Numbered from the stretch's first letter, positions 1 to 62,967 are shown. The stretch is DNA of 64,000 nucleotides from a virus (IMGVR_UViG_2846797076_000002:591-64590), one strand, 5' to 3'. The notes: generated by a model from the letters alone, not told the origin. Numbers and translations are program-made.

Positions 1-596
1 TCGATGCCGTGAGTGTTGCGGATCTCCGTATCAGGTCGACCGCACCCCGCCTCGCTCTCATGCGATCCCGCAATGCCGCCACGACCGATAAGCTGCCAGA
101 CCACGCCACCGAGCTTGCGAACCTCATCCGCTTCATTCGGGAATCGGCAGTCATCGACAACGACGAGGCCGCCTGCGGCGATGATGAGATTTACACGGCG
201 CACCCACAACTCAATCCAGAAGGACGGCCCAATGCAGGCGCGCCCCCATTGTGTGCCCAAGGTCTGCATTGCGTGACGTGGCGTGGCTCCTTGTAGCCAT
301 TCACATGGCTCTTCCTTGAGCCTGCCTTCAATCTGCTCCTCACTTAGGCCGATCGCCCGCAGCATATCTTTCAACGGTCCTGCGAACTTGACCAGCTGAT
401 AGCCGTGCTTCTCGACCAGGTACTTGCTGGCCGTGGACTTGCCGCTTCCAGCAAGGCCGGTCAGTGCGATGACTGGCGGCAGGATGGCTGTGCTGGCCTT
501 CCCAATTGCCGCGCCGAGTGCGCGCAGCTCGGCAGGAACGTTATCATTCGCCGGTACGGCTGTGAGGCAGCCGGTGTCTTTGGATGTAATGGTCAT
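1..596 (-). CDS. Deoxynucleoside monophosphate kinase (T4 gp1-like), 3' end cut by window edge; not in ORF track
   Basis: Manual translation MTITSKDTGCLTAVPANDNVPAE...VIALTGLAGSGKST...FAGPLKDML...TPRHAMQTLGTQWGR...VVVDDCRFPNE; ATG overlaps stop of upstream gene. Confidence 0.85.
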   Translation of the reverse strand, partial: MTITSKDTGCLTAVPANDNVPAELRALGAAIGKASTAILPPVIALTGLAGSGKSTASKYLVEKHGYQLVKFAGPLKDMLRAIGLSEEQIEGRLKEEPCEWLQGATPRHAMQTLGTQWGRACIGPSFWIELWVRRVNLIIAAGGLVVVDDCRFPNEADEVRKLGGVVWQLIGRGGIAGSHESEAGCGRPDTEIRNTHGI

Positions 597-1018
597 TCGC
601 CGGTCTCCTCGATGATCGCCATGGCTTTGCGGTACTTTTCCAAGCGCGCTCGGTTCTTTTCATCGTCAGGCAGCGCCCGCGAAACATCCATGTTGTCGCG
701 CAGGTCGGCGATCTTCACCTGTCGCGCGATCGGGTTGGAAATCGCTCGACGCACGAAATCGAAGTAGTCCTCACCTTCCTGCCGAGAGATAGCGAAGACA
801 GCAGCATGCACTTCCTCACCGAATATCGCCAGGATGTCGTCGTGGCTGATGCCGCTATCCTCGACGACGTCATGAAGAACACCGACAATTCGAGCAGTCT
901 CGTTATCCTGTGCGAACATCACGCGAAGCGGGTGCAGGATATATGGCAGTCCTGCCTTATCGGTCTGCCCCTCATGTGCGTCGACCGCGAATTTGATTGC
1001 TGTGTCTAAGTCGCTCAT
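593..1018 (-). CDS. HD-domain protein, small alarmone hydrolase / RelA-SpoT hydrolase-like
   Basis: AHEGQTDKAGLPYILHP, LHDVVED, VKIADLRDN motifs. Confidence 0.8.
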   Translation of the reverse strand: MSDLDTAIKFAVDAHEGQTDKAGLPYILHPLRVMFAQDNETARIVGVLHDVVEDSGISHDDILAIFGEEVHAAVFAISRQEGEDYFDFVRRAISNPIARQVKIADLRDNMDVSRALPDDEKNRARLEKYRKAMAIIEETGE

Positions 1019-1293
1019 ACCGTCTCCTCAACCTCCTTCTTGCTTTCCTCCGCAGGCTTCACGACCGGCTTAAACCGACGCAGTGCAAAGGGTGGATCTT
1101 CAGTGCCGAACTGCGGGCACACTCCGCGGTTCACGCCCGCCAAGCGAATGCCAGCGTAGTCGCCGGCGAGATATGTGCGGCACATCCCGACCCACGTTGC
1201 TGTGTAGGTCTCCCCGGCACGAATGCCGAGGTATTGCTCCAGAAGGGTGGAATCATCCACGCATATGACTTCGTCGCCGGGTTTGATGGTCAT
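1015..1293 (-). CDS. Hypothetical phage protein
   Basis: Coupled by ATGA overlaps in operon. Confidence 0.6.
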   Translation of the reverse strand: MTIKPGDEVICVDDSTLLEQYLGIRAGETYTATWVGMCRTYLAGDYAGIRLAGVNRGVCPQFGTEDPPFALRRFKPVVKPAEESKKEVEETV

Positions 1294-1496
1294 GTGGCCT
1301 CCGTTCCGAATTCAAAGTTAACAACAGCATGGGGCTCGCCAGTCGCTCGCCGCAATCGGCATTGCATTTCTACGCGTAGTGCCTCCCACAAACGAGGCTC
1401 CAAGCGATTGCCGTTATGGAGGTAGGCTGGCCCAGCCGCTATCTGTACGCTGGCATTTTCGCCAATCTCGACAAGCTTCTGCATTGTCAGGGTCAT
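1290..1496 (-). CDS. Hypothetical phage protein
   Basis: ATGA overlap with neighbours. Confidence 0.5.
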   Translation of the reverse strand: MTLTMQKLVEIGENASVQIAAGPAYLHNGNRLEPRLWEALRVEMQCRLRRATGEPHAVVNFEFGTEAT

Positions 1497-1678
1497 GCCA
1501 GCCACACCCCCAACCAGATGAGACCAGAGGCGGGCCAGAGGGCCGCAACGCCCATTCCAAAAATGACCGCAATCGGTCCCTTGGCAGCGAAAGTGCCGAC
1601 GAAGTATCCGAGCGCAACCAAAGCCACAGCAATATAGGCCAGCCAGAAAGCCGCAACCTTCGTGTCTTCGCTCATCAC
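1493..1678 (-). CDS. Small two-TM membrane protein
   Basis: Two hydrophobic stretches; coupled overlaps. Confidence 0.6.
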   Translation of the reverse strand: MMSEDTKVAAFWLAYIAVALVALGYFVGTFAAKGPIAVIFGMGVAALWPASGLIWLGVWLA

Positions 1679-2331
1679 GCCCTCCCCGCCATCAACGCAT
1701 CAAACGTAGCCAAGAACTCGAGATCCGCCTCCTCCGGCGACCAATACCGCAGCTTCACGCCAAGCGGCTTGTCGTGCCTAGAGTGCCAAGGCATCTCGCG
1801 CAGGTTGACCAGCTCGTCGGCGATGATCCGGTTGTCAGCATCGTGCACCGCCCTCGGCAACTCCTTCGGCAAACCAAACCGAGCCGCGATAGCGAGCCAA
1901 TTGTCTTGCTCGATTGCCCGGTAGTTCGTCAGGTAGGGCTTCAGCGGGCGCGGAATGTCCACGCAGTACGCCTCCGGTGCATCGTGCAGAAGGCCGGCGA
2001 GTGCGACCTCTGGCGCGTGCTTGGCTGCGAGGTGACGGGCGATTAAGACGGAATGTTCGGCGACGCTGTAGAACTTGATGCAGTGACCAGCGTAGCGCGC
2101 CTGCATGGCGAGGGAGTGCGCGATGTCCTCGATGTGGACTTCGTGCGGGCGCGGGTCCATCGGCCAATATTTGCGGCCGGAGAAAACTTGCATGAAGTCG
2201 CCAGTGCGGGGTGGCACGTTGTCGTTGGCGGCCACGTACTTGTCGAGAGGGCCGAAGGTGGTGGTGGTGAGGTCTGTGGCTGGCGCTGGGCCGACCTGTC
2301 TCGCGCCGTACATGTGAACGTAATTGCTCAT
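1675..2331 (-). CDS. HD-superfamily phosphohydrolase (YfbR/5'-deoxynucleotidase-like)
   Basis: IEDIAHSL..RYAGH..FYSVAEHSV, LLHDAPEAY..DIPRPLK. Confidence 0.85.
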   Translation of the reverse strand: MSNYVHMYGARQVGPAPATDLTTTTFGPLDKYVAANDNVPPRTGDFMQVFSGRKYWPMDPRPHEVHIEDIAHSLAMQARYAGHCIKFYSVAEHSVLIARHLAAKHAPEVALAGLLHDAPEAYCVDIPRPLKPYLTNYRAIEQDNWLAIAARFGLPKELPRAVHDADNRIIADELVNLREMPWHSRHDKPLGVKLRYWSPEEADLEFLATFDALMAGRA

Positions 2332-2900
2332 GCCGCCACCAAACGGGTGCGAAGCCCGACCTTCTCGCTAGTTGCGTTGAATTTGGCGCGCACAGCATCA
2401 TCGAGATCGATACCGTATTCTTGCGCTAGAAGATCGGCGCAGATGACGATGTCCGCCAATTCCTCGGACAGCTGCTGAACGGTGGCGCGTGATCCGCGGA
2501 TTCCAAGCTCTTCCCGCACCAGCTTCTTTACGACGTTGCTTGCCTCGCCGCACTCTCCTGACAATTCGTTTGCGCGCCAAAGTTTGCCAAGCGGACCGCT
2601 GATCTTGCTATCGGCGTCCCATTCTTTTTGACGCGCAATGTTCGCAGCACGCAGGACGGAGAAATTGTCGTTGGCCGCGACGGGGCCATGGCCTGCCGCC
2701 CACGTCTCCACCTTGTAGGCGCTGAAACGCGTCCGGAACTGGTCGCCTTCCTCGCTCATGATGGCGCTGGTGGTGATCCAGTCTCCGTCGAGGAACCGAC
2801 CTTTGGTGTCGCCGAAAACTTGCCCGTACAGGCAAGGCGCACGATGATCTTGGCTCTTCGACAATCTCTGCGCGTTTCGCAGTGTCCCTACGATTTCCAT
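2328..2900 (-). CDS. MazG-like NTP pyrophosphohydrolase with extra N-terminal domain
   Basis: ELSGECGEASNVVKK...EELADIVI...KFN motif. Confidence 0.8.
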   Translation of the reverse strand: MEIVGTLRNAQRLSKSQDHRAPCLYGQVFGDTKGRFLDGDWITTSAIMSEEGDQFRTRFSAYKVETWAAGHGPVAANDNFSVLRAANIARQKEWDADSKISGPLGKLWRANELSGECGEASNVVKKLVREELGIRGSRATVQQLSEELADIVICADLLAQEYGIDLDDAVRAKFNATSEKVGLRTRLVAA

Positions 2901-3361: not shown

Positions 3362-4611
3362 GCCACCGCCCTCGCCGGCTCATTGTCATTCGCGGCCGAA
3401 TACCGCCCGGCGACCATCTCCGGCCGCAGCGTGGCGCGAGCCACTTCGCCATACCTGCGCGAATATGTGATGACCTTGGCAGATCGACCAGAAAGCCAAC
3501 CTCCGCCAGCAGCATATGCATCAGGCGCGGCAAGCGTCTCATGGCGCTCGACATACATCAGCGCCGACTTGCGGCCTTCATCGCTGTGCAGGTGGCCGAC
3601 GTGGGCGAAGGCGTATTTCGAGCCGCCGAACATCTCACGGAACATGCCTGCGAGCGTCGCGTCGACCTGGGCCACGCCGCGCTTATGGCCGTGATGATAG
3701 AACAGCGCCGTGTCTCCCCACTTGTAGGCGTAGTAGAGCATCGGGCTGGTATCGACCGATACGCGCGGTTCATTCTCATAGATCGTCGCCAGAAGCTCGC
3801 GCACCCAGACAGATGAGGCTGGATCGTGGTTGCCCGAGGCCATAACGACATGAACGTGCTTGTGCTTCTGTAGCAGCATGTCGACGACACGGCGCAACGT
3901 GCGGATGACGACACGAACCACCTTATGCAGTCGGGAATCAGCATCGAGAACGTGCTTATGTGCCGGCGTGACGCTCTCAAGGGCGTCGTGGTGCAACAGG
4001 TCTCCGAGCTGCGCGAGAACGGCGGTGTGCGCCTGCGGAGCGCCAGCTACAGCGGCAGCAAACCAATCCAGCAGCAACTGCTCGGCAAGTCGGAGATCAT
4101 AGTCAGCGCCCGTCTCCTCGCGGTGAGCGAGCATTCCGAAATGGCTGTCGGTCACAACGAACTGGTTTAGCAGATCTTCCTCAACGTGTTGCGGCGCCGG
4201 CATGATGGTGATGCGCGGCAGGTCTTCTTTGAGGCTTTCGACCATTGCGCGAAAAGCCGCAAGCTGGCCTTCCGCTTCCACCGCAGTCTTCTGCCACTGC
4301 TGGATAACGCGCCCCTCGCCATCGACGAGAGCAGACACGCCTTTGACGACGTGCCCGGTCGGGACTTGAAACCGATCGCCGCGCTCCGGAACCTGCTGAA
4401 TGAAGGTGCCGCTCGGCGTGTTGCTGATGCGGTTGATGCGGAATCCTGGGAGGACAGGATCTGTGCCAAGCAGGCCAGCCTCAGCTGCCCGTTTGAGGCT
4501 TTCAGCAAGCGCCGACTTGCCGATACCAAGTGCTGCGGCTGCTTTGATCAGCGTGCCGTGCTCTCGATAGGCGTCGGCTCTTCGACGTAGTTCTTCGATG
4601 GGTAGAGGCAT
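3358..4611 (-). CDS. Calcineurin-like metallophosphoesterase with N-terminal HTH
   Basis: TDSHFG, LGDLLH, GNHD, HHGH, GHLH motifs; ends AANDNEPARAVA. Confidence 0.75.
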   Translation of the reverse strand: MPLPIEELRRRADAYREHGTLIKAAAALGIGKSALAESLKRAAEAGLLGTDPVLPGFRINRISNTPSGTFIQQVPERGDRFQVPTGHVVKGVSALVDGEGRVIQQWQKTAVEAEGQLAAFRAMVESLKEDLPRITIMPAPQHVEEDLLNQFVVTDSHFGMLAHREETGADYDLRLAEQLLLDWFAAAVAGAPQAHTAVLAQLGDLLHHDALESVTPAHKHVLDADSRLHKVVRVVIRTLRRVVDMLLQKHKHVHVVMASGNHDPASSVWVRELLATIYENEPRVSVDTSPMLYYAYKWGDTALFYHHGHKRGVAQVDATLAGMFREMFGGSKYAFAHVGHLHSDEGRKSALMYVERHETLAAPDAYAAGGGWLSGRSAKVITYSRRYGEVARATLRPEMVAGRYSAANDNEPARAVA

Positions 4612-6049: not shown

Positions 6050-6256
6050 GTGCGCCCAAACCCTAGAGAACCACAAGCCGATCCGGTCGACCACATCATC
6101 GCCTGGCACGACGGAGATAGCCGGGCGGCCATCGAAACGCTGATGGAAGACATCCAACATCTGCGGTTGCAGCTCGCATTGGCGACTGCCGCAATGGGCA
6201 AGGGATTTACACGAGGCTGGCTACCGAATGAAACCCGGGATGACAGCAAACGATAA
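6050..6256 (+). CDS. Small helical hypothetical protein
   Basis: AGGAG SD before GTG 6050; DPVDHIIAWHDGDSRAAI. Confidence 0.6.
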   Translation: MRPNPREPQADPVDHIIAWHDGDSRAAIETLMEDIQHLRLQLALATAAMGKGFTRGWLPNETRDDSKR

Positions 6257-6719
6257 CGGATACGAGTACACGGAACTCGAACGGGAAAGAATATGGGTCA
6301 TCTGCGAGGATTGCGAGCTTCTTCGGTCGTTCGATGGCAACGCGGTGAAGGTGGAATTTATTGCGGCACCAGCTCCAAGCCCGCTTCGAATGATTGCGCA
6401 GAGGCTTATTGGATGTCCAAAATCGAAGGAAGATTTCGGCCCGCGATGCAGGTTGAGCTATTACTGGACCTTCGAGGAACGAACATCAAAAGCGGCGAAA
6501 GAAGAAACCTCCGGCGCGCGGGTGTTCGATCTACGCTCCTGGGAAGTCGTTGTGGCCGGGTGTGGATCGTGCAAGCATGTGACGGAGTTACCACGCTGGA
6601 AGCTATTGAAGATGGTCGGCGGTAACACGACCCTCAAAGAATTGCAGCCACGCCTGAAATGCCGGAAGTGCGGCGAAAAGGGCGGATCCTTTATCACGAT
6701 TGCAAAATTGCCGAGGTGA
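6240..6719 (+). CDS. Double zinc-ribbon-like protein
   Basis: CEDC, CGSC, CRKC motifs; starts MTANDNG. Confidence 0.65.
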   Translation: MTANDNGYEYTELERERIWVICEDCELLRSFDGNAVKVEFIAAPAPSPLRMIAQRLIGCPKSKEDFGPRCRLSYYWTFEERTSKAAKEETSGARVFDLRSWEVVVAGCGSCKHVTELPRWKLLKMVGGNTTLKELQPRLKCRKCGEKGGSFITIAKLPR

Positions 6720-35122: not shown

Positions 35123-35593
35123 TTACTTTGTGTTGTCGTTATCGGCCAGCCAGCCTTTGACCAGTGCCACCGCCTTGCTGGCCGCTTCTGCCGTGGATGT
35201 GAACCGCACCACCTCGACTGGATGCCCTAGCCGAGCCAGCGAGGCGTGGCGCTCGACCTGCGCCGGAGATAGCCGGCCTTTACCAACCTTGTTCTCGATC
35301 ATCCGCAGCTTGCCGCCCTTGAGGTAAATCCGTAGATCGGCTTCGCCTGGCGTCAACCCGGTGGCTATAGCATCAGCTTGGGCACGTGGTCCGCGCTTGG
35401 CTGAATTCATGTCGCCAGCAAGCAGGAACTGGCGACCGTACTCCGGCAGCGACCGCAGGGTTCGCACTTGAGCCGCCTGCCCTTCGCTTTCCTTGATGGG
35501 TGCGTCAGCGACGCACACCTTGCCCTTGGCGCTCGTGCGGATGACGACGCGCTTGCCGTTGATGCGGGTGGTCTGGCTGGTGGCTTTGGGCAT
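35123..35593 (-). CDS. VRR-NUC domain nuclease
   Basis: GLTPGEADL, IENK..KGRLSPAQ. Confidence 0.8.
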   Translation of the reverse strand: MPKATSQTTRINGKRVVIRTSAKGKVCVADAPIKESEGQAAQVRTLRSLPEYGRQFLLAGDMNSAKRGPRAQADAIATGLTPGEADLRIYLKGGKLRMIENKVGKGRLSPAQVERHASLARLGHPVEVVRFTSTAEAASKAVALVKGWLADNDNTK

Positions 35594-35597
35594 GGCG

Positions 35598-42316: not shown

Positions 42317-43944
42317 TAGGCTGCATCCTTAAAATCAATAACGGCCATAGATGGCATGAACTGCGCGATACGCTGACCGAGCCAGACGAATTTCGGCACG
42401 GCCCAGCTGTTACCGAGAGACTTGTAGCGAGGGCCGTCTGGAGAGTTCTGTTTGCCGCGCCACGGGATGTCGGTGTAGTCGTCAGGAAAGCCCTGAAGGC
42501 GTTCGCATTCAAGGGGAGTTAGGCGTCGGACGGCACTCGTAAGCACCGCCGGCATCACGCCTGCATTGGCATGGCTGTTGGTGTGGCCACCGGTGCGAAG
42601 TGTTGGGGCCAAGTCAAAGGATGCGTCGGCGCCGTAGTCCTTTGACGAGAAGCACACAATCGGCGTCCCCCGCCCCGTTCCATCCTCGCTCGCGTCCGCA
42701 CCTTCAGCTTTGAGCGTGTGGGCGACTTCGCCAGTGACGCAGACTGCCTGAACTTCAGCGCGAGACTCAAGTGTATAGGCAACACCCTCCTGAACACCGA
42801 CGCCGTCTGGCCCGCTATTCGGATTTGTGCGTAGCGCGCCTGCTTGAATTGCGTGGGTAACGAAATGCCCCGCGGCAGCGCCCTCTGGTCGTCCACCCAT
42901 CCCGCCGCTGAAACTGTCTTTGCAAAGAGTTCCGACGACAGCAACCATCGTTGTAGTTTCAAAATCCTGCGAGGACCCTTCGCGTGTTGCGACGCAACGC
43001 GCTATTTCAGGGATATATGTCTCTTTCGTTGCATCATGGCTGCTGTTGCCCTTGGCCAGCAGCGGATTGGCCGCCTCCACCAACCCACCATCTAGATCGA
43101 AGTCTGTTCCGAGCCCGCCGCCGCCTTTAGTGCGTGCGCTAATTGTGGGGGCAACGTCTTTCCCCTTTTCTCGGCTCGGCGGAGTATCCCTGAACATGCT
43201 TTCGGGCTCAAAAAGAACCGCTGCGGGATCTGCCCCGTTTCCAAAATCTTCGACAACGAGCACACGACGGCGTCGTTGGGCCACTCCGAAAAATTGCCCA
43301 TCTTTGACAGCCCACGCGGCCCGTCCTTTAGGTCCAGTGACCATACCGTGACGCGCCCACTTTCCTCTTCTCGGTGGTTCGATGTGGGAATCTGCACCCA
43401 CAAGTCCGGCGAGGAAGCAGCCGAAGGCGTTGTCTTTGGTGCTGAGAACGCCGACAACGTTTTCCCAGACGACGTTCCGAAGTCCATTGTTAGCTGCAAG
43501 CTCATGCGCAAGCCTCACGAATTCGAGTGACAAGTTTCCTCGCGCATCGGCGAGAGATTGACGAAGGCCAGCCACACTGAACGCCTGGCAAGGCGTGCCG
43601 CCTGCGAGAATGTCGACGCGACCAAGCGTCTTGGTGTCGATCTTGGTGAAGTCGCCCCAGTTGGTCAGAACCGACTCGACCGGCAACCGTGACACTGCCT
43701 TGAGGGCAGTTTTTCGCGAACGCTGATCCTTCAGCTTGATGCCCGGTTCTCCGGGGTTCGGCATGTGCTTAGGGCGCCCTGCACCATAGTGGTGCGCTAG
43801 CACGAAAGCAGGGAAGGGTTCGATTTCGGCCACGCCGATGCATTGCCACCCGAGTGGATGCCAAGCGACCGAGGCCGCTTCAATGCCAGAGCATACCGAC
43901 AAGAAGCGTAGGCCGGTGTGGTTGTCATTTGCCGCTATGGGCAT
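42316..43944 (-). CDS. C5 cytosine DNA methyltransferase
   Basis: SVCSGIEAA, GGTPCQAFS, WENV, QRRRR, RRLTPLECERLQGFP, LGNS. Confidence 0.93.
   Translation of the reverse strand: MPIAANDNHTGLRFLSVCSGIEAASVAWHPLGWQCIGVAEIEPFPAFVLAHHYGAGRPKHMPNPGEPGIKLKDQRSRKTALKAVSRLPVESVLTNWGDFTKIDTKTLGRVDILAGGTPCQAFSVAGLRQSLADARGNLSLEFVRLAHELAANNGLRNVVWENVVGVLSTKDNAFGCFLAGLVGADSHIEPPRRGKWARHGMVTGPKGRAAWAVKDGQFFGVAQRRRRVLVVEDFGNGADPAAVLFEPESMFRDTPPSREKGKDVAPTISARTKGGGGLGTDFDLDGGLVEAANPLLAKGNSSHDATKETYIPEIARCVATREGSSQDFETTTMVAVVGTLCKDSFSGGMGGRPEGAAAGHFVTHAIQAGALRTNPNSGPDGVGVQEGVAYTLESRAEVQAVCVTGEVAHTLKAEGADASEDGTGRGTPIVCFSSKDYGADASFDLAPTLRTGGHTNSHANAGVMPAVLTSAVRRLTPLECERLQGFPDDYTDIPWRGKQNSPDGPRYKSLGNSWAVPKFVWLGQRIAQFMPSMAVIDFKDAA
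43092..43511 (-). CDS. Nested alternative-frame ORF inside the C5 MTase (beta-polypeptide-like)
   Basis: CSLSKILETGQIPQRFFLSPKACSGILRRAEKRGKTLPPQL reads as a protein-like block in a second frame. Confidence 0.6.
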   Translation of the reverse strand: MRMSLQLTMDFGTSSGKTLSAFSAPKTTPSAASSPDLWVQIPTSNHREEESGRVTVWSLDLKDGPRGLSKMGNFSEWPNDAVVCSLSKILETGQIPQRFFLSPKACSGILRRAEKRGKTLPPQLAHALKAAAGSEQTSI

Positions 43945-44953: not shown

Positions 44954-45343
44954 TTAGAATGGCGCGTCTTTCAGTGCCTCGCGAACTCCGCGGGCGCAAC
45001 CCTCCCAAGCTGCTCGTACCAGCAGCTTCTGCATTAGCTCGTCGTAATGGGACAATTCGGTGATGCCACCGTTTGCTGCGATCCATTCACCGACAGCTTC
45101 GACACCGGATTCAAGCGCCTTAACCTCGTACAATGAAACTCTGTCCAACTTCGTCAAATCTCCGATTGAAATCATACAGGCCTTGCACATAAATCCAGGG
45201 TCAGGTGGTCTGTGCCGGTCGCTGGGGTCTGACCTTCCTACCCCTATCGCAAGCATCCCGCAGCACTTGCACACGGTGGGTGACCCGTTCTCGTCTTGCG
45301 TCGGACTAAATGGAATGATCGGCTTGCCGGGAAGCTTGGTCAT
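44954..45343 (-). CDS. Zn-finger hypothetical protein
   Basis: CKCC and CKAC; ATGA overlap. Confidence 0.6.
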   Translation of the reverse strand: MTKLPGKPIIPFSPTQDENGSPTVCKCCGMLAIGVGRSDPSDRHRPPDPGFMCKACMISIGDLTKLDRVSLYEVKALESGVEAVGEWIAANGGITELSHYDELMQKLLVRAAWEGCARGVREALKDAPF

Positions 45344-46950
45344 GCTGCCACCCCAAACAAGTCGGCAGGACGGTTATCGTTTGCCGGTACCGTACCAGTC
45401 TCGACGACTTCTTTGCTTGTCGCGCCAATCGCCCACGCAATCCGGGCCGCAGCGATAGGCATGTATTCGTCCTCGCGCTCGCAACCGACGAACTGGAAAC
45501 CTTCGAGAAGGGCCGCCTTGCCTGTGCTGCCCGAGCCCATGAACGGATCCAGGATAATACCACCCGGTGGCGTGATGAGGCGGCAAAGCCACTGCATGAG
45601 GGTTGTTGGCTTAACGGTTGGGTGAACATTGCGGCGGTTGGCCTTCAAGGCGCCGTATGCGTCAGATATTTCGCTGCTGGTTCCACCGCCGCCAGATACG
45701 GTAACCTCCGGGAACGCCTCCAGCCCAGCATCACGGTCAGCACGGCTGGCTTTGGCGCAGTAGAAGAAGCGAGCGGCTGAAGTTTCCGCCTCGACGCGCG
45801 GATGACTATCAGGCCGCGCACCAAAGTCACCATAGATGCCCTTGCTTAGGCGCTCACCGTGCTTCGGCCCAACATATCCCTGCTGGCCTTTTGCATTAGG
45901 AAACGCCGCCAGCACCTCTTCGCTGCCGTCGTGGAGGATGTTGGCTGGCCAGCGGCCAAGGTCTTGTTCATTGCCACCCGGGGCACGAGAGCCGTCAATG
46001 TTGATGGCTCCAGTGCCGTGTTCAAGAACGTTTTCGGCAACTGTCCCTATCAGGGGCTTTCGCGCAAGGCAGATGGGCTCCCACGCCGGCTTAAGTGCGG
46101 TTCCCCACCCTTGCCACGCAGACGCCTCCTCATCCAAGCTGCGGATGGTCCTGTCGCCTTCAAATCGAAGGTCACCAAAGCCAGCGGGCGTCGAAGCTAC
46201 TTCGCCGATAATCTCTGCTTCAGCCCAACGCTCGCCGTGCGTGCCCTTGCGACCATTAAGGCGTGAAACCTCGATCGAGATAAACTCAAATCCATCTCTG
46301 CCCGACAAAGATAGAGCGTCAACAAGTCCATCCCACTGCTCATTGGTTGGCAGAGCAGGCTGGGAGTCGGTGTCACGCGCTGCCCAATGGTCGATGAGAC
46401 GCGGATTGCAGTCGCCAAAATGCTGAGTGAGGTCTTTCGACTTCAGACCTGCCTCATCCATTGCAGCACGAATGAACCGGCAAACGACTCGCACCGGCTC
46501 AACGTCTTCGACGCGACGCTTGGCAATCCCCTTGCTGACATCATGGCTCTTCGGAAACCCTGAACCGTAAACCCAACCAAGCTGATCGCGGATCTCAAAT
46601 CCAGCATCTTCGATCGCAACAGCCATGCGGTGATAGGTTCGCGTTCCAGAGAACGCGACAACGTGGCCGCCTGGCTTCAGGACGCGCAGAACTTCGGCCC
46701 AGAACTCTTCGGAGAATGCTACTTCGCCGGTGTCCCAGCTTTTCCCCATAAAACCAGCGGCGCCGCGACCATAAACGTCTTTGGCCGGGGCAGATCCCGG
46801 CTTTCCGAAACGCTTCTGAATCGAGACCAGCGCATAAGGCGGGTCGGTCACGACGCTGTCGATCGAGTTGTCGGCAAGGCCGCGCAACACGTCACGGCAA
46901 TCGTTTTGATGCAGCACGACTCTTCCGTCGTGCATCGATGTGATGCTCAC
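45340..46950 (-). CDS. N6-adenine/N4-cytosine DNA methyltransferase with internal HTH-like insert
   Basis: VTDPPY, HPTVKP, LDPFMGSGSTG; ends ANDNRPADLFGVAA. Confidence 0.92.
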   Translation of the reverse strand: MSITSMHDGRVVLHQNDCRDVLRGLADNSIDSVVTDPPYALVSIQKRFGKPGSAPAKDVYGRGAAGFMGKSWDTGEVAFSEEFWAEVLRVLKPGGHVVAFSGTRTYHRMAVAIEDAGFEIRDQLGWVYGSGFPKSHDVSKGIAKRRVEDVEPVRVVCRFIRAAMDEAGLKSKDLTQHFGDCNPRLIDHWAARDTDSQPALPTNEQWDGLVDALSLSGRDGFEFISIEVSRLNGRKGTHGERWAEAEIIGEVASTPAGFGDLRFEGDRTIRSLDEEASAWQGWGTALKPAWEPICLARKPLIGTVAENVLEHGTGAINIDGSRAPGGNEQDLGRWPANILHDGSEEVLAAFPNAKGQQGYVGPKHGERLSKGIYGDFGARPDSHPRVEAETSAARFFYCAKASRADRDAGLEAFPEVTVSGGGGTSSEISDAYGALKANRRNVHPTVKPTTLMQWLCRLITPPGGIILDPFMGSGSTGKAALLEGFQFVGCEREDEYMPIAAARIAWAIGATSKEVVETGTVPANDNRPADLFGVAA

Positions 46951-47330: not shown

Positions 47331-47848
47331 GCCACCCTCACGCTGAGCTGCTCACCCGCGTCACCCATCTTTGCCCCAGGCACGTCTGTGCCTGCCTTGA
47401 GAAGGTCAGCGATTGCCTTCTTGTCCGGCGCGGTGGTGATCTTCACGACGTTTGTGGGCAGCAACGCCTCATCCACAATCTCAACAGTCGCAGCTTTCTT
47501 GCCGATGGAGATGGTCGCCTCAGCCAGCGGCACACGCGGCACGCCGGCTGCTTTCAACAGCTTGAACATCAGAGTGCGCATGGCTTCCTTGCGGCGCTCG
47601 GCCCGCGACTTGCGTGCTTGCAGGTCTGATATACGGCCAGCCACGGCCTTGGCCAGGCTGTCGGCGTCACGCTCACCGTTAACGAGACGCGTCAGGACGG
47701 CGTGGAAGTTCGTCTCTCCTTCGAGCATATCCGCGCGCAGTTCTTCGTCCGCTTCCAGTTCTGGATAGGCGGCGAGCATATCAGCGAAAAGGGCTTCTAG
47801 GTTGGCCACGTCGGCGGCCAAAAAGTTGTCGTTGGCTGGTTTGGTCAT
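47327..47848 (-). CDS. Siphovirus Gp157 family protein
   Basis: ADMLEGET, IVDEALLP, PDKKAI..LKAG.DVPGA. Confidence 0.85.
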   Translation of the reverse strand: MTKPANDNFLAADVANLEALFADMLAAYPELEADEELRADMLEGETNFHAVLTRLVNGERDADSLAKAVAGRISDLQARKSRAERRKEAMRTLMFKLLKAAGVPRVPLAEATISIGKKAATVEIVDEALLPTNVVKITTAPDKKAIADLLKAGTDVPGAKMGDAGEQLSVRVA

Positions 47849-48540: not shown

Positions 48541-50295
48541 TTAGAACGGCACGTCGTCGTCCATCAGCACCCGCCAATCCTCTTCTTCCCGCGCATTGTC
48601 ATTCACCGGTGACACCCGATTGTCATTCGCAGCACCGACCACATGGCCCACAACGTCCCAGTATTTCTGGCGCGGCTTAACCGTGATCTCGACGGTGTCG
48701 GCCAACTCCGCCTGACGCTCGATCCATTCCAGAACGGTCTTTGGAAACGGCATCTTGCCGCCATGCGCGCGCCAATAGCGGTCTGCCTTCGACTTGGGGA
48801 AGCCTTGGTGTTGCGGGCAAATCCACTCATTGATCGCCGTCATGCCGGACATGTAGCTGACCTTCACCGACGGCGGCTTATCGCCTTTGCCTTCATGGTA
48901 GTAGAAGCTGCGGGATGTGACGGTGCGGGGTTCCGGTTCTGCCGTCGACATGATCGGCGTATCAGCAGCTGTGGCCGTAATCTTCGGACTGTCGTCGATG
49001 TCGAACTCATACCCGCAGCAAGAGCAGGTACGCGCGGAGGCATGCACCTTTTCTCCACAGCCGAAGCGACCATTCTTATCTTCGACGTCGAACGGGCAGA
49101 CCTTTACAGGCGCTTCGCCGTCACCCTTGCCAGGAACCTTTGGCTGCACCATGTCGACCGGCCCGTGCTTGTCGACGAGACCGGCGAAGTCCAGCACAAG
49201 GCAGGATGGCTTCGGGCCGGCCTTGATCGCAGCGATGCGCTCCTCAGGCGTCTCAAGAGGCATGCCGGACGCGTATATGACGCGAGTGCCGCGGCCCATC
49301 ATCTGCACATAGAGCGATACCGACAACGTCGGACGCAATGCTGCGATCAGGTCGACGCCCTTGTGATTGAAGCCGGTAGTGAGTACCGAGTTGTTGGTGA
49401 GTGCGCGGATCTTGTAGGACTTGAAGTCCTCGATGATGCGACGGCGCTCGTCCTTCGGGGTTTCGCCGCTGATCATTTCGCAGGAGATGCCGCGCGAACG
49501 GATCTCATCACGCACGTGCTCGGCGTGCTCAACTCCCGAACAAAAGCAGAGCCACGATTTGCGGTCGGCGCCTTTCGCAACGATTTCATCAACGGCGGAG
49601 CACGTGACGTCCATCTTATCCACGGCAGCCTGCAACGCGGACTGCTTGTAATCGCCTCCCTGCCTGCCGACGCCTTTCATGTCGAAGGTGGTTGCCGTTG
49701 CCTTGGACGAAAGCGGCGCGAGATATCCGTCGCCGACACCGTCAGCGATGCCGTAGGTGTAGACGATCTGGTCGAACAGACGATCGTCGCCCTCATCCAG
49801 CCGGCCTGTGTCCAGCCGGTAAGGCGTGGCGGTGAGCCCCAAGATCTTCATGTCTGGATTGATGGCACGCAGCGCCGCGATGAAGCGGCCGTACATCGTG
49901 TTGCTGTTGGCAGGGATCAAATGGCACTCGTCGACCATCAGCACGTCGATGTGGCCGATGAGCGCGGCCTTGCTGTGCACAGTCTGGATGCCCGCAAAGA
50001 TGATCTGGCTACGCGCGTCACGGCGACCAAGGCCAGCAGAGAAAATCCCCGCCGGCGCAAAAGGCCAGATTCCAAGCAGCTCAAGGTAATTTTGCTCGAT
50101 CAGTTCGGCGACATGGGTAGCCACGAGTATGCGCATGTCCGGCCAGCCTTCGACCAGCCTCTTGATGAGCGATGCCATGAGCAGCGACTTGCCGCAGCCG
50201 GTCGCAAGATCGACCAGCGGATTGCCGGCCGTCGTTGACCAATAGTCGAAAACGGCGTTTTCTGCTTCTTCCTGGTAGTGGCGCAGTTGGAGCAT
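48541..50295 (-). CDS. SF2 DExH helicase (RadD/YejH-like)
   Basis: LRHYQ, ATGCGKS, VDECH, GLTATP, QMMGRGTR, Zn finger. Confidence 0.92.
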   Translation of the reverse strand: MLQLRHYQEEAENAVFDYWSTTAGNPLVDLATGCGKSLLMASLIKRLVEGWPDMRILVATHVAELIEQNYLELLGIWPFAPAGIFSAGLGRRDARSQIIFAGIQTVHSKAALIGHIDVLMVDECHLIPANSNTMYGRFIAALRAINPDMKILGLTATPYRLDTGRLDEGDDRLFDQIVYTYGIADGVGDGYLAPLSSKATATTFDMKGVGRQGGDYKQSALQAAVDKMDVTCSAVDEIVAKGADRKSWLCFCSGVEHAEHVRDEIRSRGISCEMISGETPKDERRRIIEDFKSYKIRALTNNSVLTTGFNHKGVDLIAALRPTLSVSLYVQMMGRGTRVIYASGMPLETPEERIAAIKAGPKPSCLVLDFAGLVDKHGPVDMVQPKVPGKGDGEAPVKVCPFDVEDKNGRFGCGEKVHASARTCSCCGYEFDIDDSPKITATAADTPIMSTAEPEPRTVTSRSFYYHEGKGDKPPSVKVSYMSGMTAINEWICPQHQGFPKSKADRYWRAHGGKMPFPKTVLEWIERQAELADTVEITVKPRQKYWDVVGHVVGAANDNRVSPVNDNAREEEDWRVLMDDDVPF

Positions 50296-50582: not shown

Positions 50583-51115
50583 CTAGCCTCCCGTAGCAGC
50601 CCAAGCACCCTCGCCCGCTCCTTAATAACGATCTGGCGCACGCGCTCCTTTGTGAGGCCGTGGTCGTTGCCAATGGCTTCCAGCGTCTCGCCCATCGCCC
50701 TGCGCATCAACATCGCGCCATTGCGGCCTTCCAGCAAAGAGACAACACGAGTCAAGTCGGTGCCCTCCTCCTGATGCGGATCGGTAGAGCCCGGCATCTC
50801 GTCGAATGCCGAGAGACTGCAAATTTCGGCAGAGCGCGACTTCGTGGAATTGGTGCGGACAAATTCCTGAGCAGTGCCTCGAACGCAAAGGACGGCCCAC
50901 GTCCAGAAGGTCTCAAGGCGACATTCGCGGTGCCGGCGCAACATGACGACCATCGCTGACTGAAACAGCTCGTCGGCCGCGTCCTCGTTCTTGGTGATCT
51001 TTCGCGCCAGTCTTCGCAAGGCCGGCTCGTAGGCCAGAAGCTTGCGGTCGAACTCGGGACTGCGCGGATTGTTGTCGTTGGCAGCGACAAGCGGCGTGCG
51101 TGCTACAAGCGGCAT
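50579..51115 (-). CDS. ECF-like sigma factor / sigma70 region 2+4 protein
   Basis: LRRLARKIT.NEDAADELFQ, GETLEAIG...LTKERVRQI. Confidence 0.8.
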   Translation of the reverse strand: MPLVARTPLVAANDNNPRSPEFDRKLLAYEPALRRLARKITKNEDAADELFQSAMVVMLRRHRECRLETFWTWAVLCVRGTAQEFVRTNSTKSRSAEICSLSAFDEMPGSTDPHQEEGTDLTRVVSLLEGRNGAMLMRRAMGETLEAIGNDHGLTKERVRQIVIKERARVLGLLREAS

Positions 51116-53411: not shown

Positions 53412-53415
53412 GGGC

Positions 53416-53469: not shown

Positions 53470-54306
53470 TTAGGCTGCGAAAGAGAACGGCGACTGCTTC
53501 TTGGGCGGCTCGTAGCCGATCGGATAGCCGCAGCCATCCTCGCCTTCATCGTAACGGGTCGCGTCGAACGGCTGGCCCTTCAGCTCAGCAATCTTCTTGA
53601 ACAGACCAATAGCGCTGCCTGGCTGATCCTCGTTGTCGTTTGCGACCCACGATTCCTTGCCTTCGTCGTCGACAGTCAGTGCAGCGATTGCCGCGTCCAG
53701 AGAGAAAGGCGTGCCTTCTGTGCCGAGAACGACCTTCTCGCCATAAGCGCCGCCGATCTGGTCTTTCAGCTCTTCCCACGTGTCGATTTTCACCTTGCGG
53801 CCAGCCAACACAATCTTGAGAATGTCGCCCTTACCGATCGTATAGCCGCGATCCTGATACTTGAGAACGCGCGTTGCCGACGCCAGCGGGTAACGGGTAC
53901 CTGGATGGAATCGCAGGAAGCGCTGGGAGTTGTGTTTCAGGAAGTCGTTGTGGAATGAGAATTCATCGGTGTCGAAGTCCAGTGCGCCCATAACGACAGT
54001 GAAGTCGAACGCGTCGAAGATGTCCTGTGCTGTCGGGAAGTAGTCGAAGTGCATGAACTGGATTGGCGTTCCGCCACTCTCAGCAAATGTCACGGCACGC
54101 TTTGTCGTGGAAACGCACCAGAACCCATCCTCATACGCCTGCGCCACGGCATATTCGAAAGCCTCCCGGCTCTTGAAGTAGACGTCTACGTCGTTGATGT
54201 CTCGATTGGTGAAGACGCTCGTCACCGCTCCGCCAGCCGCGAATGCGCCGGGGATCGGGTAGCATTTCTCCGTAATCTTTCTGGCTTCCGCCTTGTAGTT
54301 CGTCAT
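53470..54306 (-). CDS. Pol-beta-superfamily nucleotidyltransferase-like protein
   Basis: AAGGAV....DINDVDVYF, FDFTVVMGA, RVLKYQDRGY. Confidence 0.7.
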   Translation of the reverse strand: MTNYKAEARKITEKCYPIPGAFAAGGAVTSVFTNRDINDVDVYFKSREAFEYAVAQAYEDGFWCVSTTKRAVTFAESGGTPIQFMHFDYFPTAQDIFDAFDFTVVMGALDFDTDEFSFHNDFLKHNSQRFLRFHPGTRYPLASATRVLKYQDRGYTIGKGDILKIVLAGRKVKIDTWEELKDQIGGAYGEKVVLGTEGTPFSLDAAIAALTVDDEGKESWVANDNEDQPGSAIGLFKKIAELKGQPFDATRYDEGEDGCGYPIGYEPPKKQSPFSFAA

Positions 54307-54369: not shown

Positions 54370-54948
54370 TTACTTGCTGCCCCAGGGCCGGCGCGTCGTG
54401 CCAGCGGCCGCAGCGGCAGGCTTGTTGTCGTTGCTGGCTGCGGTGCGGCGATTGTCGTTGGCTGCGGCTGGCGCAGCATCGACCTTCGGCTCAGGCAGGT
54501 TGCCCTCATCAGGGTAATAGTACTTCTTCAACTCGTTGCGCGCCGCGTACTTCGGGGTACCGTCGGCGTTTTTCTCCTTGCTGTCCTTGCCCATGCCGAT
54601 GCGGGCAAAGAACGAGATGAAATGCAATTCATCAGAATCTTCTGGCGCCTCGTCGTGGCCGAGTGAGCGCAGTAGGCAGGCAAATTGGCGCTGGCCGATC
54701 TCCTGCGTCTGAGGATTTGGATGCTGCAGATTGTAGTTGTTGAAGACCTTGCGGCCTTTGAGTTCCTCGGGAGCAAGGACGTCGATTGTCACGCTCAGAT
54801 TGATGGCGTGGTCGCGGGTATCCTTGTTCTTTTCCTTGATCTCGGACGCGCTGATCTCAAGCTGGTAGTCGCCATTCGGCAGGTTGGTGAAATCGCGCTG
54901 CTGGGTGTTCTCTTCGGTCGCTTCAACTCTGACGCCAATCTTGGCCAT
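54370..54948 (-). CDS. ssDNA-binding protein, DUF669-like
   Basis: LPNGDY, GRKVFNNYNL, C-terminal RPW; follows Sak4-like ATPase. Confidence 0.8.
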   Translation of the reverse strand: MAKIGVRVEATEENTQQRDFTNLPNGDYQLEISASEIKEKNKDTRDHAINLSVTIDVLAPEELKGRKVFNNYNLQHPNPQTQEIGQRQFACLLRSLGHDEAPEDSDELHFISFFARIGMGKDSKEKNADGTPKYAARNELKKYYYPDEGNLPEPKVDAAPAAANDNRRTAASNDNKPAAAAAGTTRRPWGSK

Positions 54949-56732: not shown

Positions 56733-57884
56733 TTAGGCGGCGTTCTCATATTCGATCCACGCCTCGACGGCGTCTTTGGCGCCCCTCAACGTAAGACCAG
56801 CCACAGCGCGCAGCTCCTTGATCGCGTCGATCTTGAGGCCCAGCGCTGCCATGTTCTGCCACTTGTGGTCATAGACCGGCGCGGCTTCTTCGTGCGTCGT
56901 GGTCAGCGTAAACACGCCGAACTGCTTGCCTTTGTATTTTGCCGCGAGGCGCTTGGCTTCCTTTTCAGCCGCGCCGGCAGACGTATGGACGTGCGGCGTT
57001 GAGGATGGCTTGGGCTGGCCGTTTTCGATGGGGGCGACGATGGCGATGGCGGTGGGTGATGTGATGTTCGCCAGTTCCAAATCTTGGGCGGGCCACCAGT
57101 AAGGATTTTCTTCCGACGGTCCAGACCATCCAGTATTATTTGGACCATCCTTGGTTTTTATCGTGAAGAAACTTCCGATGCTTTTATCAAGGTAGCTCTC
57201 GCGTGAGTTAGACACGATTTTCACTCGATCACCAACCTTGAACTTCGGCTGCGAGTTGTCGTTGCTCGGATTGGCCTTTGCTTCGGGCGCGTCGATCCAT
57301 TCGGCGACGATGTCGTTATCCTTCAGGCTCGTCTGGTCGCCTCGGTACGATGAGCGACCGTCATCCGACCAAACAGCGCTAGCATGATTGCTTCTGCTGC
57401 CGAACGTAGCGATGTTTCCAGAGACGAAGGCTGGCCCGACCTTCCGGCCATCGCGCGTCTTGTAGAACTTGCCTTCCTCGATCTTGATGGTGGCGGGCTG
57501 TTCTGGCGTTGCGGGGGCGAGGATCGGTTCGAGCTCATCAGCGCGCCAAACATAGCCACCCGCGTTGTCTCCACCCCATGTCTGCACACCGTTCCCTACC
57601 TTGTAGGCCTCTTTGATCACAGTGAACTCAAGACCAATGGCTGCGGACTTGTGTTGAAGTTCGGCCCGCGCGACCCGCACCCGCTCGCCGACGCGCGGCT
57701 GCCAGGGTTCGTAGTTCTCGATGAGACCAGCGTGACCATTGGTGAATACGATATCAGTTGTGAAGCCCTTTACGATGTCGGCGATTTGGCCAACAAAGCC
57801 AGCCCCGTGGCGTCCAGCGTTCGTTGTCAAAGACTCGCCGGTTGTTCTGCGCACAAAATCACCCTTCTTAAACTCACCCATCAC
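56733..57884 (-). CDS. Polyvalent protein: SH3/KOW-like repeats + C-terminal ribosomal bL12 (L7/L12)-like domain
   Basis: FKKGDFV, VGERVRV, FKVGDRVKI repeats; KIDAIKELRAVAGLTLRGAKDAVE. Confidence 0.75.
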   Translation of the reverse strand: MMGEFKKGDFVRRTTGESLTTNAGRHGAGFVGQIADIVKGFTTDIVFTNGHAGLIENYEPWQPRVGERVRVARAELQHKSAAIGLEFTVIKEAYKVGNGVQTWGGDNAGGYVWRADELEPILAPATPEQPATIKIEEGKFYKTRDGRKVGPAFVSGNIATFGSRSNHASAVWSDDGRSSYRGDQTSLKDNDIVAEWIDAPEAKANPSNDNSQPKFKVGDRVKIVSNSRESYLDKSIGSFFTIKTKDGPNNTGWSGPSEENPYWWPAQDLELANITSPTAIAIVAPIENGQPKPSSTPHVHTSAGAAEKEAKRLAAKYKGKQFGVFTLTTTHEEAAPVYDHKWQNMAALGLKIDAIKELRAVAGLTLRGAKDAVEAWIEYENAA

Positions 57885-58407: not shown

Positions 58408-58754
58408 GCTGTCACCCCACGCAGTGCGTAGTCGTTGACCGCCTGCCCGGCCTGCAAGTCAGCATCGTCGATGTTGTCATTTGCGGCGGTAAGAACGCGC
58501 GGCAGCGAAACCGGCATGAGGCCAGAAAGTGTGGAGCAGCCGCCGTTGTGCGGCGCCAAGTGCGTCGTGCGGTCTGTATTGTTGTCATTGGCTGGGATGA
58601 AGGCGCGCTGCTTGTGCAGGCCGTATGCGCGCCGCAGCCGCTGGTATGCGGCCATTGGCTTGACGTTGTGTCTGGCGGCAATATCTGCGACGCTCTCACC
58701 GTTTTCACGGCGCGCGTGCATATCCGCCAGCATAGTGCTGGTGATAAGCGTCAT
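58404..58754 (-). CDS. HTH-containing small protein with two ANDN motifs
   Basis: GESVADIAARHNV; first gene after promoter 58837. Confidence 0.65.
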   Translation of the reverse strand: MTLITSTMLADMHARRENGESVADIAARHNVKPMAAYQRLRRAYGLHKQRAFIPANDNNTDRTTHLAPHNGGCSTLSGLMPVSLPRVLTAANDNIDDADLQAGQAVNDYALRGVTA

Positions 58755-58757
58755 GTC

Positions 58758-58799
58758 GTCTCCTCTGAGTGGTGGCCGCCTCGTGGTTGACAAAGCGAC
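58758..58799 (-). repeat. Leader copy
   Basis: GUCGCUUUG-UCAACCA-CGAGGCGGC (G-U pairs only on mRNA strand)-CACCACUCAGAGGAGAC. Confidence 0.75.
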
Positions 58800-61759: not shown

Positions 61760-61761
61760 AA

Positions 61762-61793
61762 CACCACCCACCACCACACCACATCGAGGAGAC
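61762..61793 (+). repeat. Leader copy on + strand with tandem CACCAC
   Basis: CACCACCCACCACCACACCACAUCGAGGAGAC. Confidence 0.8.
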
Positions 61794-61797
61794 AATC

Positions 61798-62010
61798 ATG
61801 TCCAGAAGACGCGACACCACCTACACCCCTGCCCCGTATGCCGGCGACGGTCTTGAAGTCGTAGCCAACCTTTCATCCGGAACCGCACCGACGGCCGTTC
61901 TCATCGCAGTCGCCAAATGGCATGAGCGCAAAAAGGACGGCCGCAACCGCGTCATCGCCTCCAAGCTGCGTGAACTCGTCGCGGCGAATGACAATCGAAG
62001 GAGAGGATGA
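61798..62010 (+). CDS. Hypothetical protein ending AANDNRRRG
   Basis: Leader/SD. Confidence 0.65.
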   Translation: MSRRRDTTYTPAPYAGDGLEVVANLSSGTAPTAVLIAVAKWHERKKDGRNRVIASKLRELVAANDNRRRG

Positions 62011-62534
62011 TGGGCGTGGAGGAAACTGGTAATGCGGGCTTTGAGCCCGCCCTGTCCGCTGTGGAGCCGGTGAAGGTGCTGCATGAAAACGACACTGTTT
62101 GGGCGCGCTTCTATCGCGACGGTAAAAACCTAGGAGAGATTTGCGCCGAGTTTAATTGTGGCGTCTATGACTTGTCTCCATGGCTTACTGCGCCATTGAT
62201 GCGCTCGGCCCCCGCGCAATCCGTGGCCGTGAAGGCTTTGCAGGATCATGTGCTGGCGGATTTCACGCACCTGACAGAGCACCAATCCCTGTCAGGCCCA
62301 TATCTCGTCAAGCGCATCAAAGAGCGCTTCGCATCGTTCGCCCTCTCCGCACAGGTGCAGGACGGGGCGGGGTGGCAGCGTCTTGATAACGCGTTTTCCA
62401 ATTTCATCAACGGTTACGGCGATCCCTACGAGCCGAAGGAAGCGCATGAAGCCGAAACAGCGCGAAACCTGAAAGAGCTTTACGACGCATTCCAAGCTTA
62501 CCGAGCCACAGCACCCGCAAAGCAGGAGGGCTGA
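62007..62534 (+). CDS. Hypothetical protein
   Basis: ATGA overlap; ALSAQVQD. Confidence 0.6.
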   Translation: MMGVEETGNAGFEPALSAVEPVKVLHENDTVWARFYRDGKNLGEICAEFNCGVYDLSPWLTAPLMRSAPAQSVAVKALQDHVLADFTHLTEHQSLSGPYLVKRIKERFASFALSAQVQDGAGWQRLDNAFSNFINGYGDPYEPKEAHEAETARNLKELYDAFQAYRATAPAKQEG

Positions 62535-62697
62535 GACGTGAGCGACGACTTGACACCAGAGATGATCGATACGGCGGAAGCAAACATCCGGGGTGATCAT
62601 CGGTCTGGAAAGATATCGACAGAGCAGTTTCATAAGGAAATGCTGATTGTCGCAAGGGCGAGGCGATATGCGCTTGCTGAATCGCGGGAGGCCAGCC

Positions 62698-62967
62698 ATG
62701 TCACCAGCCAATGACAACACCCCTCGCCTCATGGGTAGAAGAGAAGCCGCCGCCTATCTCGGCATAGGGCAGTCAACATTCTCGCTGTGGGTATCGACCC
62801 ACAAGATGCCGGCAGCTATTGCCGGCACTCGCAAGTGGGACAAGCGAGCGATTGACGCTAAACTCGATGAGATAAGCGGCCTCCTGCCGGCGAACGACAA
62901 TACCGAGGATGAATTCGAACGATGGGAGCGCGAGCAGAATGCGCGAAAAGCTCAAGGGTCTAGCTAG
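62698..62967 (+). CDS. xis: Excisionase-like HTH protein
   Basis: PRLMGRREAAAYLGIG, RKWDKRAID; overlaps int; two ANDN. Confidence 0.8.
   Translation: MSPANDNTPRLMGRREAAAYLGIGQSTFSLWVSTHKMPAAIAGTRKWDKRAIDAKLDEISGLLPANDNTEDEFERWEREQNARKAQGSS

Follow-up and report, generated by a model that had tools for sequence, protein, structure and literature searches.

A peptide identical to the head of the host tmRNA tag recurs in 17 non-virion proteins of a temperate Agrobacterium/Rhizobium-type phage

In alphaproteobacteria, the peptide tag that transfer-messenger RNA (tmRNA, the product of ssrA) adds by trans-translation is reportedly bound at its N-terminal part, or head, by SspB (SspB-alpha), the adaptor of the protease ClpXP. 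The Caulobacter tag is AANDNFAEEFAVAA, and deletion of sspB in that organism slows the decay of an ssrA-tagged protein (PMC9393093). Here we describe the tetrapeptide ANDN, encoded in the genes of a phage, in a stretch of 64,000 nucleotides (hereafter the window) that comprises bases 591-64590 of the 64,590-bp provirus record IMGVR_UViG_2846797076_000002, rated complete. The window phage is a temperate phage of Agrobacterium/Rhizobium type; its nearest named relatives are Rhizobium phage RHph_TM3_3_14B (helicase 79.5% identity) and Sinorhizobium phage NV1.1.1, and the nearest prophages are those of Agrobacterium burrii and A. pusense, whose primase-helicases show 93% and 92% identity.

The phage motif resembles the native ssrA/SspB/ClpXP system in its identical four-residue head, usually with Ala before it, in the many copies that are followed by an Ala-Ala end at native length, and in its location in presumably exposed ends. 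It differs in that the native tag is added by trans-translation whereas the phage motif is gene-encoded and is internal or N-terminal in 60% of copies; the aromatic or Ala residues that follow ANDN in the tag are not kept, and Pro is common at positions -1 and +2.

Other described systems share single aspects of this arrangement. Eukaryotic viruses are well known for short-linear-motif (SLiM) mimicry, in which disorder-embedded host docking peptides are gained convergently in unrelated proteins; the window phage likewise bears copies of a putative short docking peptide in unrelated viral proteins, the difference being that a phage and a bacterial protease adaptor would be involved. Mycobacteria, to our knowledge, have no native SspB. 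Mycobacteriophage repressors and integrases bear C-terminal ssrA-like tags (PMC9262239), and E. coli SspB has been supplied to mycobacteria (PMC3064785). The mycobacteriophage tags are alike in that a temperate phage hard-codes part of the host ssrA tag, such that a host protease sets the level of a phage protein; they are C-terminal ClpX-type ends only, on two regulatory proteins, whereas here the putative adaptor-binding head occurs in 17 functionally diverse proteins. SspB reportedly also has clients that lack the ssrA tag and bring a docking peptide of their own, among them E. coli RseA (cited in PMC5587285) and P. aeruginosa MucA (PMC13251409). In both, an SspB-binding peptide away from the C-terminus delivers the protein to ClpXP, but these are single host regulators whose peptides are unlike the tag, whereas here exact tag-head copies are shared by a whole set of phage proteins. 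Our literature searches, with supplementary files outside their range, returned no description of tag-head copies across many proteins of one phage. On sequence grounds it is quite possible, and we propose tentatively, that the extended motif [Ala/Pro]-Ala-Asn-Asp-Asn is a copy of the host tmRNA-tag head that docks its carriers to SspB-ClpXP.

Abundance of ANDN and selection on the peptide

Six-frame translation of the window gives exactly 20 ANDN tetrapeptides, each in a long open reading frame (ORF) in the direction of its gene (16 minus-strand, 4 plus-strand), spread over 17 unrelated proteins where ~0.15 copies would be expected; an earlier reading made from the sequence alone (hereafter the sequence-only reading) had listed about 20 copies in the same 17 proteins, and the count bears it out. 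Five of the 17 carriers have a second copy: ORF 34167-35084, ORF 58404-58793 and the excisionase (Xis)-like protein contain two ANDN each, while the helicase and the single-stranded DNA-binding protein (SSB)-like protein each pair one ANDN with one variant. In a crude proteome of 88 ORFs (18,446 aa), ANDN is by far the most over-represented tetrapeptide (16 observed, 0.146 expected) and the top pentapeptides are AANDN (10, against 0.017 expected) and PANDN (6, against 0.007); when residues were shuffled within proteins 2000 times, ANDN averaged 0.16 and reached 3 at most, compared with 15 in the called set. The sequence-only reading had proposed counting the motif per residue against the host, and here the contrast is steep: 400 kb of a related host chromosome (A. 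burrii, same crude gene caller, 372 proteins, 114,341 aa) contain a single ANDN, making the phage, with 20 per 18,446 aa, ~120-fold denser (odds ratio 124). At the scale of whole genomes, the pattern GCNAAYGAYAAY has 44 matches in G001 and 43 in G002, of which 15 and 20, respectively, lie inside a related ~54-kb prophage and one per genome is the tmRNA gene itself; the reversed pattern, used as a control, matched 7 and 10 times.

The copies are unevenly placed. The virion/lysis block at 11-33.9 kb, in which Pfam identifies lysozyme, tail proteins, tape measure, tail tube, capsid, S49 protease, portal and TerL, has no ANDN in its 29 called genes (6,944 aa; P = 7e-5 if the 20 copies were even per residue). 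The long leftward DNA-handling block encodes, again by Pfam, a Prim-Pol/AAA_25 primase-helicase, C5 and N6/N4 methylases, an Mrr-like nuclease, Gp157, an SF2 helicase, a sigma-70-type factor, a beta clamp, a DUF669 SSB-like protein and an AAA_24 ATPase. The rest of the map is made up of genes of repressor type and, beside an integrase-sized ORF, an HTH_17 excisionase-like gene. The sequence-only reading had called the carriers early proteins and the motif absent from virion proteins. Their early status is deduced from gene order, and "non-virion", which holds throughout the window, is the safer term.

Codons within the motif are mixed: in the called set, Ala is GCA, GCC and GCG in 5, 7 and 3 copies, the first Asn is AAC or AAT in 8 and 7, and the second is AAC or AAT in 9 and 6. 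Because synonymous codons vary, selection is on the peptide, as the sequence-only reading had held; the motif is also kept while the DNA of orthologues has diverged. A signal at the level of nucleic acid or translation, such as a site in the DNA, a boundary of recombination or three successive codons decoded through queuosine (AAY GAY AAY), in each case devoid of peptide function, would account for the ~13-fold enrichment of the word AAYGAYAAY itself (27 occurrences, about 1 per strand expected) and for the preference for GAC over GAT in the motif (14 to 1 in the called set, as against 671 to 447 genome-wide), Asn and Asp codons being decoded by queuosine tRNAs. Such DNA-level and codon-level explanations are nevertheless very unlikely. 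Read in the gene direction, 25 of the 27 words encode NDN in a long ORF (the 20 ANDN, DNDN, VNDN, two SNDN and an ENDN in the helicase fold), one of the remaining two falling in a 63-codon ORF (19807) and one running antisense to the clamp gene (52851), and intergenic copies are absent. The remaining wobble positions show free variation, Ala and the preceding Ala or Pro are kept as residues through four Ala codons, His and Tyr codons never take the place of those in the motif, and positions are retained where orthologue DNA has diverged.

Comparison with orthologues reveals how closely the motif is held within otherwise labile sequence. The window phage shares ten motif positions with NV1.1.1, in proteins that are 30-77% identical and with adjoining indels, and the linker and tails around the motif are indel-rich. 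In the otherwise unalignable primase-helicase linker, N-D-N are the sole invariant residues in 12 orthologues, and both copies of ORF 34167-35084 are invariant in 7 of 7. In two proteins, the deoxynucleoside monophosphate (dNMP) kinase and the N6 methylase, the site of the motif differs between the window phage and NV1.1.1, which indicates repeated gain. ANDN is a real, selected short linear motif, and the selection operates at the peptide level.

Host tag, carrier ends and distribution among phages

In both Agrobacterium genomes that bear the closest prophages, the ARAGORN-predicted tag is ANDNNAKEYALAA. SspB is present in 40 of the 41 genomes sampled from the order, and all 26 tmRNA tags found in 31 SspB loci start with ANDN and end in AA, making ANDN the invariant head of the host group's tag; the sequence-only reading had likewise stated that alphaproteobacterial tags begin (A)ANDN. 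The sspB gene lies directly downstream of ssrA in 26 of these 31 loci (L022-L054), both Agrobacterium genomes included, and ssrA-sspB is a conserved gene pair in the order; structures of SspB have been solved for Agrobacterium and Caulobacter (2NYS, 2QAS and 2QAZ). The phage motif is identical to the head of the host tag and the residues after ANDN differ from it. An SspB homologue and a tmRNA or tRNA gene were looked for in the window phage and none was found.

We pooled 129 motif copies from 14 genomes and loci, which together define an extended motif, [Ala 65 / Pro 44]-Ala-Asn-Asp-Asn-x-[Pro 52], preceded by Ala or Pro in 109 of the 129. The last 20 residues of the protein hold 51 of these copies, and the other 78 (~60%) are internal or N-terminal. 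Tail length is 11-14 residues in 30 of the 51 C-terminal copies (native tags here have 12-13), and 27 of the 51 end in AA; in the window, the tails measure 14 (N6 methylase), 11 (3358-4611), 16 (34167-35084) and 8 (61732-62010) residues. Tests of -AA ends, for which called ORFs under 60 aa were dropped, show that in the pooled set 26 of 50 tail carriers and 26 of 59 carriers with internal or N-terminal copies only end in -AA, against 64 of 373 non-carriers. For the internal/N-terminal-only class versus non-carriers p = 1.7e-5, the pooled p-values being too small since orthologues were treated as independent. Within the window, 6 of 17 carriers end in -AA (2 more end in VA) compared with 9 of 72 non-carriers (p = 0.035).

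Such ends are also frequent in ANDN-free proteins of the phage family (the same 64 of 373, against 26 of 372 host proteins, p = 2.5e-5). ANDN-free examples in the window are the portal (ending PAARAA) and the products of 55131-55904 (GVAA), 56361-56672 (RVAA) and 57881-58213 (EGAA).

Among related phages the motif is abundant, with 20 ANDN in NV1.1.1, 18 in 41.7 kb of RHph_TM3_3_14B, 15 in 50 kb of phage 16-3 and 4-12 in each of 11 prophage loci of 14.5-22 kb; across these relatives it is retained while its flanks diverge. Distant loci (L015-L021) have 0-1 ANDN each. Two lytic Queuovirinae with a homologous helicase have neither ANDN nor AND[DE]N in the sequence covered (23 kb of Pseudomonas PAJD-1; 35.6 kb of Escherichia SLUR76), which shows only that the mimicry is not universal. 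A portal-protein search gave no alphaproteobacterial phage beyond NV1.1.1 among the 60 matches listed. Independent lineages were also sought by a pattern scan of 81 genomes of the class, in which one other high count appeared among the matches listed (G048, 44 matches, 1 in the reversed control). We rejected G048 as the host of a motif-bearing prophage: its matches are spread over the chromosome and are nearly all written in favoured codons (GCC/GCG-AAC/AAT-GAC-AAC), hence most likely a compositional, codon-usage effect.

Individual sites and neighboring features

The sequence-only reading had placed the copies in termini or linkers, and all of them do fall outside every Pfam domain found, although residues 290-293 of ORF 34167-35084 are predicted in a helix. 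Several lie close to an N-terminus. In the dNMP kinase, ANDN occupies residues 16-19 (VPANDNVP; 540..551, minus strand), before the P-loop domain of a protein ending EDAA; ORF 1675-2331 carries it near its N-terminus (VAANDNVP; 2218..2229, minus), where it is retained in NV1.1.1 with an indel directly after; and in ORF 6228-6719 it forms residues 7-10 (MKPGMTANDNG; 6246..6257, plus). The C5 cytosine methyltransferase has AANDN at residues 4-8 (MPIAANDNH; 43921..43932, minus) and ends KDAA, Gp157 has PANDN at residues 4-8 (MTKPANDNF; 47825..47836, minus), upstream of its Pfam domain (17-171), and ends VRVA, and the sigma-70-type factor has AANDN at residues 11-15 (51071..51082, minus), before region 2 (28-90), retained in NV1.1.1 at 30% identity. 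The HTH_17 excisionase-like protein opens with PANDN (MSPANDNT; 62707..62718, plus) and bears a second PANDN past its helix-turn-helix (HTH), 21 residues from the end (62890..62901, plus).

Internal copies include residues 76-79 of the MazG-like protein (VAANDNFS; 2664..2675, minus), upstream of the MazG domain (112-183) in a protein ending LVAA; the PANDN of the primase-helicase (41001..41012, minus), in the linker between Prim-Pol (9-181) and AAA_25 (369-562) of a protein ending VRAA; and the VANDN at residues 221-225 of ORF 53470-54306 (53632..53643, minus; 278 aa, ending SFAA). ORF 58404-58793, which stands in the Cro position and whose RHph_TM3_3_14B orthologue is annotated cro-like, has a first copy, PANDN (58581..58592, minus), that is retained in NV1.1.1, 16-3 and RHph_TM3_3_14B, and a second, AANDN (58473..58484, minus). 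The minus-strand ORF 34167-35084 encodes a conserved 305-aa protein whose last ~60 residues form four confident helices, HTH-like or sigma-region-4-like; as the model is poor overall (mean predicted local distance difference test score, pLDDT, of 48), only these C-terminal 60 residues were used. Its PANDN (residues 36-40; 34965..34976, minus) lies in low-confidence coil, and its second copy, AANDN (residues 289-293; 34206..34217, minus), lies in the last helix of the C-terminal domain in the predicted fold (helix 282-304, pLDDT 75-82).

C-terminal copies are found in ORF 3358-4611, which ends in the tail AANDNEPARAVA (ANDN at 3382..3393, minus; 11 residues from the Ala of ANDN to the end; retained in NV1.1.1, 16-3 and RHph_TM3_3_14B), and in ORF 61732-62010, which ends AANDNRRRG (61984..61995, plus). 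The DUF669 SSB-like protein has AANDNRRTAASNDN in its tail (54424..54462, minus), downstream of domain 14-123. Variants of the motif that the sequence-only reading had named (SNDN, VNDN and DNDN) were recovered: DNDN at the C-terminus of ORF 35123-35635 (ending WLADNDNTK; 35132..35143, minus), SNDN in ORF 56733-57884 (PSNDNSQP; 57255..57266, minus; protein ending ENAA) and in the SSB-like protein, and VNDN in the helicase. The ENDN of the primase-helicase was rejected as a variant, falling within the conserved AAA_25 fold. Of the protein names given earlier, HD hydrolase, phosphoesterase, Zn protein, nucleotidyltransferase (NTase) and VRR-NUC have no Pfam support at E <= 0.001.

Two of the tails contain further peptides that resemble known docking elements. 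At the C-terminus of the N6/N4 methyltransferase, ANDNRPADLFGVAA (45343..45384, minus) is a 14-residue mimic of a whole tag that includes a clamp-binding-like ADLF. The beta-clamp-binding consensus, of QL[SD]LF type, is a short hydrophobic stretch with L-F as its last residues, located at the ends of DNA enzymes; the methylase tail has PADLF (45355-45369, minus), its counterparts being QLSLF in L010 and in RHph_TM3_3_14B and, in other relatives, ADMF or ASLF, and the phage encodes a beta clamp of its own at 52359-53549. This combination suggests that the methylases are clamp-tethered. ANDN itself was rejected as a clamp-binding motif, since it is polar and QLSLF, ADLF and ADMF stand separately before or after it in the methylase tails. 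The SF2 helicase (48541-50295) has the tandem AANDNRVSPVNDN in its C-terminal tail (48595..48630, minus), both copies of which are retained in NV1.1.1 and 16-3. It ends LMDDDVPF (48544-48564, minus), where the host SSB of A. burrii ends NDMDDDIPF, and its orthologues in NV1.1.1, 16-3, RHph_TM3_3_14B and several prophages end D-D-[DE]-[VI]-P-F or DGIPF, GEIPF or DDIQF; from this likeness, the C-terminal tip of SSB, a known docking peptide, appears to have been copied in the helicase, shortly after its pair of ANDN-type motifs.

Elsewhere in the window, an opposite-strand island of low guanine-plus-cytosine content (36651-38143, plus; 0.50, as against about 0.58) carries genes for a DUF3010 protein and for a Ser/Thr protein kinase and may be a moron or defence cassette; adjoining it is a 427-aa ORF (38229-39512, minus) with no Pfam match. 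Between the C5 and N6/N4 methylase genes lies an Mrr-type restriction endonuclease (Mrr_N + Mrr_cat; 44006-44929, minus) that has no ANDN.

Possible readers of the motif

In the mechanism that we favor, the motif, displayed in presumably flexible ends and linkers of non-virion proteins, would dock onto the host adaptor SspB, which would hand the docked carriers to ClpXP; the motif and an Ala-Ala end, at native distance in the tail copies and far off in others, would together constitute an adaptor-assisted degron. Proteins of replication, DNA modification and regulation (the Xis-like and Cro-position proteins, sigma factor, methylases and helicases) would then be short-lived, their lifetimes limited by the protease, with leaky products cleared in lysogens and carriers building up only once their expression exceeds the capacity of SspB/ClpXP. 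For the docking onto SspB that the sequence-only reading had proposed, the tag-head identity, the placement of sspB beside ssrA, the tag-length tails ending in -AA and the density of the motif all speak in favor, and the flanks, unlike those of native tags, speak against. Titration of the adaptor and timed destruction of the carriers, the two outcomes offered with that proposal, cannot be told apart here.

Several observations weigh against SspB as the reader, and some of them lend themselves to a different one. Pro stands at position +2 in 52 of 129 copies, where the 26 native tags invariably have Ala or Glu; position +1 is mainly R, N, V or F and seldom the Tyr of most native tags; and at position -1, where Ala always precedes the native tag, 44 of 129 copies have Pro. 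The -AA association is weak to modest in the window taken by itself, 11 of 17 carriers having no such end, and the copy at residues 290-293 of ORF 34167-35084 is predicted to sit in a confident helix and not in a loose tail. Annotated portals of 16-3 (L059 3354) and RHph_TM3_3_14B (L055 35823), together with likely portals of 408-425 aa at L005 21398, L009 20444 and L012 19628, end in ANDN followed by 7-10 residues and AA, such that the absence from virion proteins claimed by the sequence-only reading holds for the window and not for the lineage; the window portal (29699-30928) has a similar tail with no ANDN that keeps TPAARAA. A motif on the portal of relatives fits timing of an early proteome poorly. 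The count in other phages, also proposed earlier, was high in the 16-3/NV1.1.1/RHph_TM3_3_14B lineage and zero in the temperate Sinorhizobium phage PBC5 (50 kb), Rhodobacter phage RcapNL (40 kb) and the lytic Brucella phage Tb (41 kb), all of whose hosts have known or inferred ANDN-type tags. Among the phages sampled, the motif thus tracks phage lineage rather than host, being confined to 16-3, NV1.1.1, RHph_TM3_3_14B and prophages L003-L014, and a phage-encoded reader is therefore conceivable. Docking to such a hub, or to a host protein other than SspB, with the likeness to the tag head convergent or incidental, would also suit tails that bear an SSB-tip copy (MDDDVPF) and clamp-binding-like peptides (QLSLF/ADLF) in a phage with its own beta clamp, as general arrays of docking motifs. 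We consider it somewhat unlikely, as the motif matches exactly the sole invariant stretch of the host tag (26 of 26) and is coupled to -AA ends at tag-like spacing, the clamp-binding-like motifs stand apart from ANDN, before or after it, and the phage encodes no SspB-like protein and yielded no candidate reader.

Even with SspB bound, the main effect could fall on the host, numerous and abundant carriers saturating or borrowing the adaptor and so slowing the clearance of tmRNA-tagged and other clients, or bringing ClpX to phage complexes as a remodelling chaperone. The 11 window carriers with no -AA end, the ~60% of pooled copies (78 of 129) that are internal or N-terminal and the tandem copies in the SSB-like protein and helicase are all compatible with this, and phage pf16 encodes an SspB homologue of its own, which shows that phages are able to interfere at this node (PMC5587285). 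It is less probable than either account above: -AA ends are far commoner in carriers than in non-carriers and the tails keep native tag length, features that a degron needs and a pure decoy does not, and the motif is carried by low-copy regulators (Xis-like, Cro-position and sigma), which would be poor titrants.

An extension of the SspB-degron mechanism, which is bolder and which we regard as doubtful, is that the 16-3 group of temperate rhizobiophages, having copied the head and often also the end of the host tag into most of its non-virion proteins, runs a proteome-wide "proteolytic gate": saturable SspB-ClpXP would erase leaky lytic products in lysogens, induction would flood the protease and release them jointly, and the tails would be arrays of copied host docking peptides (ssrA head, SSB tip MDDDVPF, clamp-binding QLSLF/ADLF), amounting to SLiM mimicry on the scale of eukaryotic viruses. 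Were docking onto SspB true, this would be the first phage to couple much of its proteome, by way of an encoded tmRNA-tag head, to the adaptor of a host protease, and a clear case, in bacteria, of short-linear-motif mimicry by a virus. The engineering of Agrobacterium and Rhizobium would gain natural degrons that depend on an adaptor, and the phage itself would have a simple post-translational timer or noise filter in the lysis-lysogeny decision.

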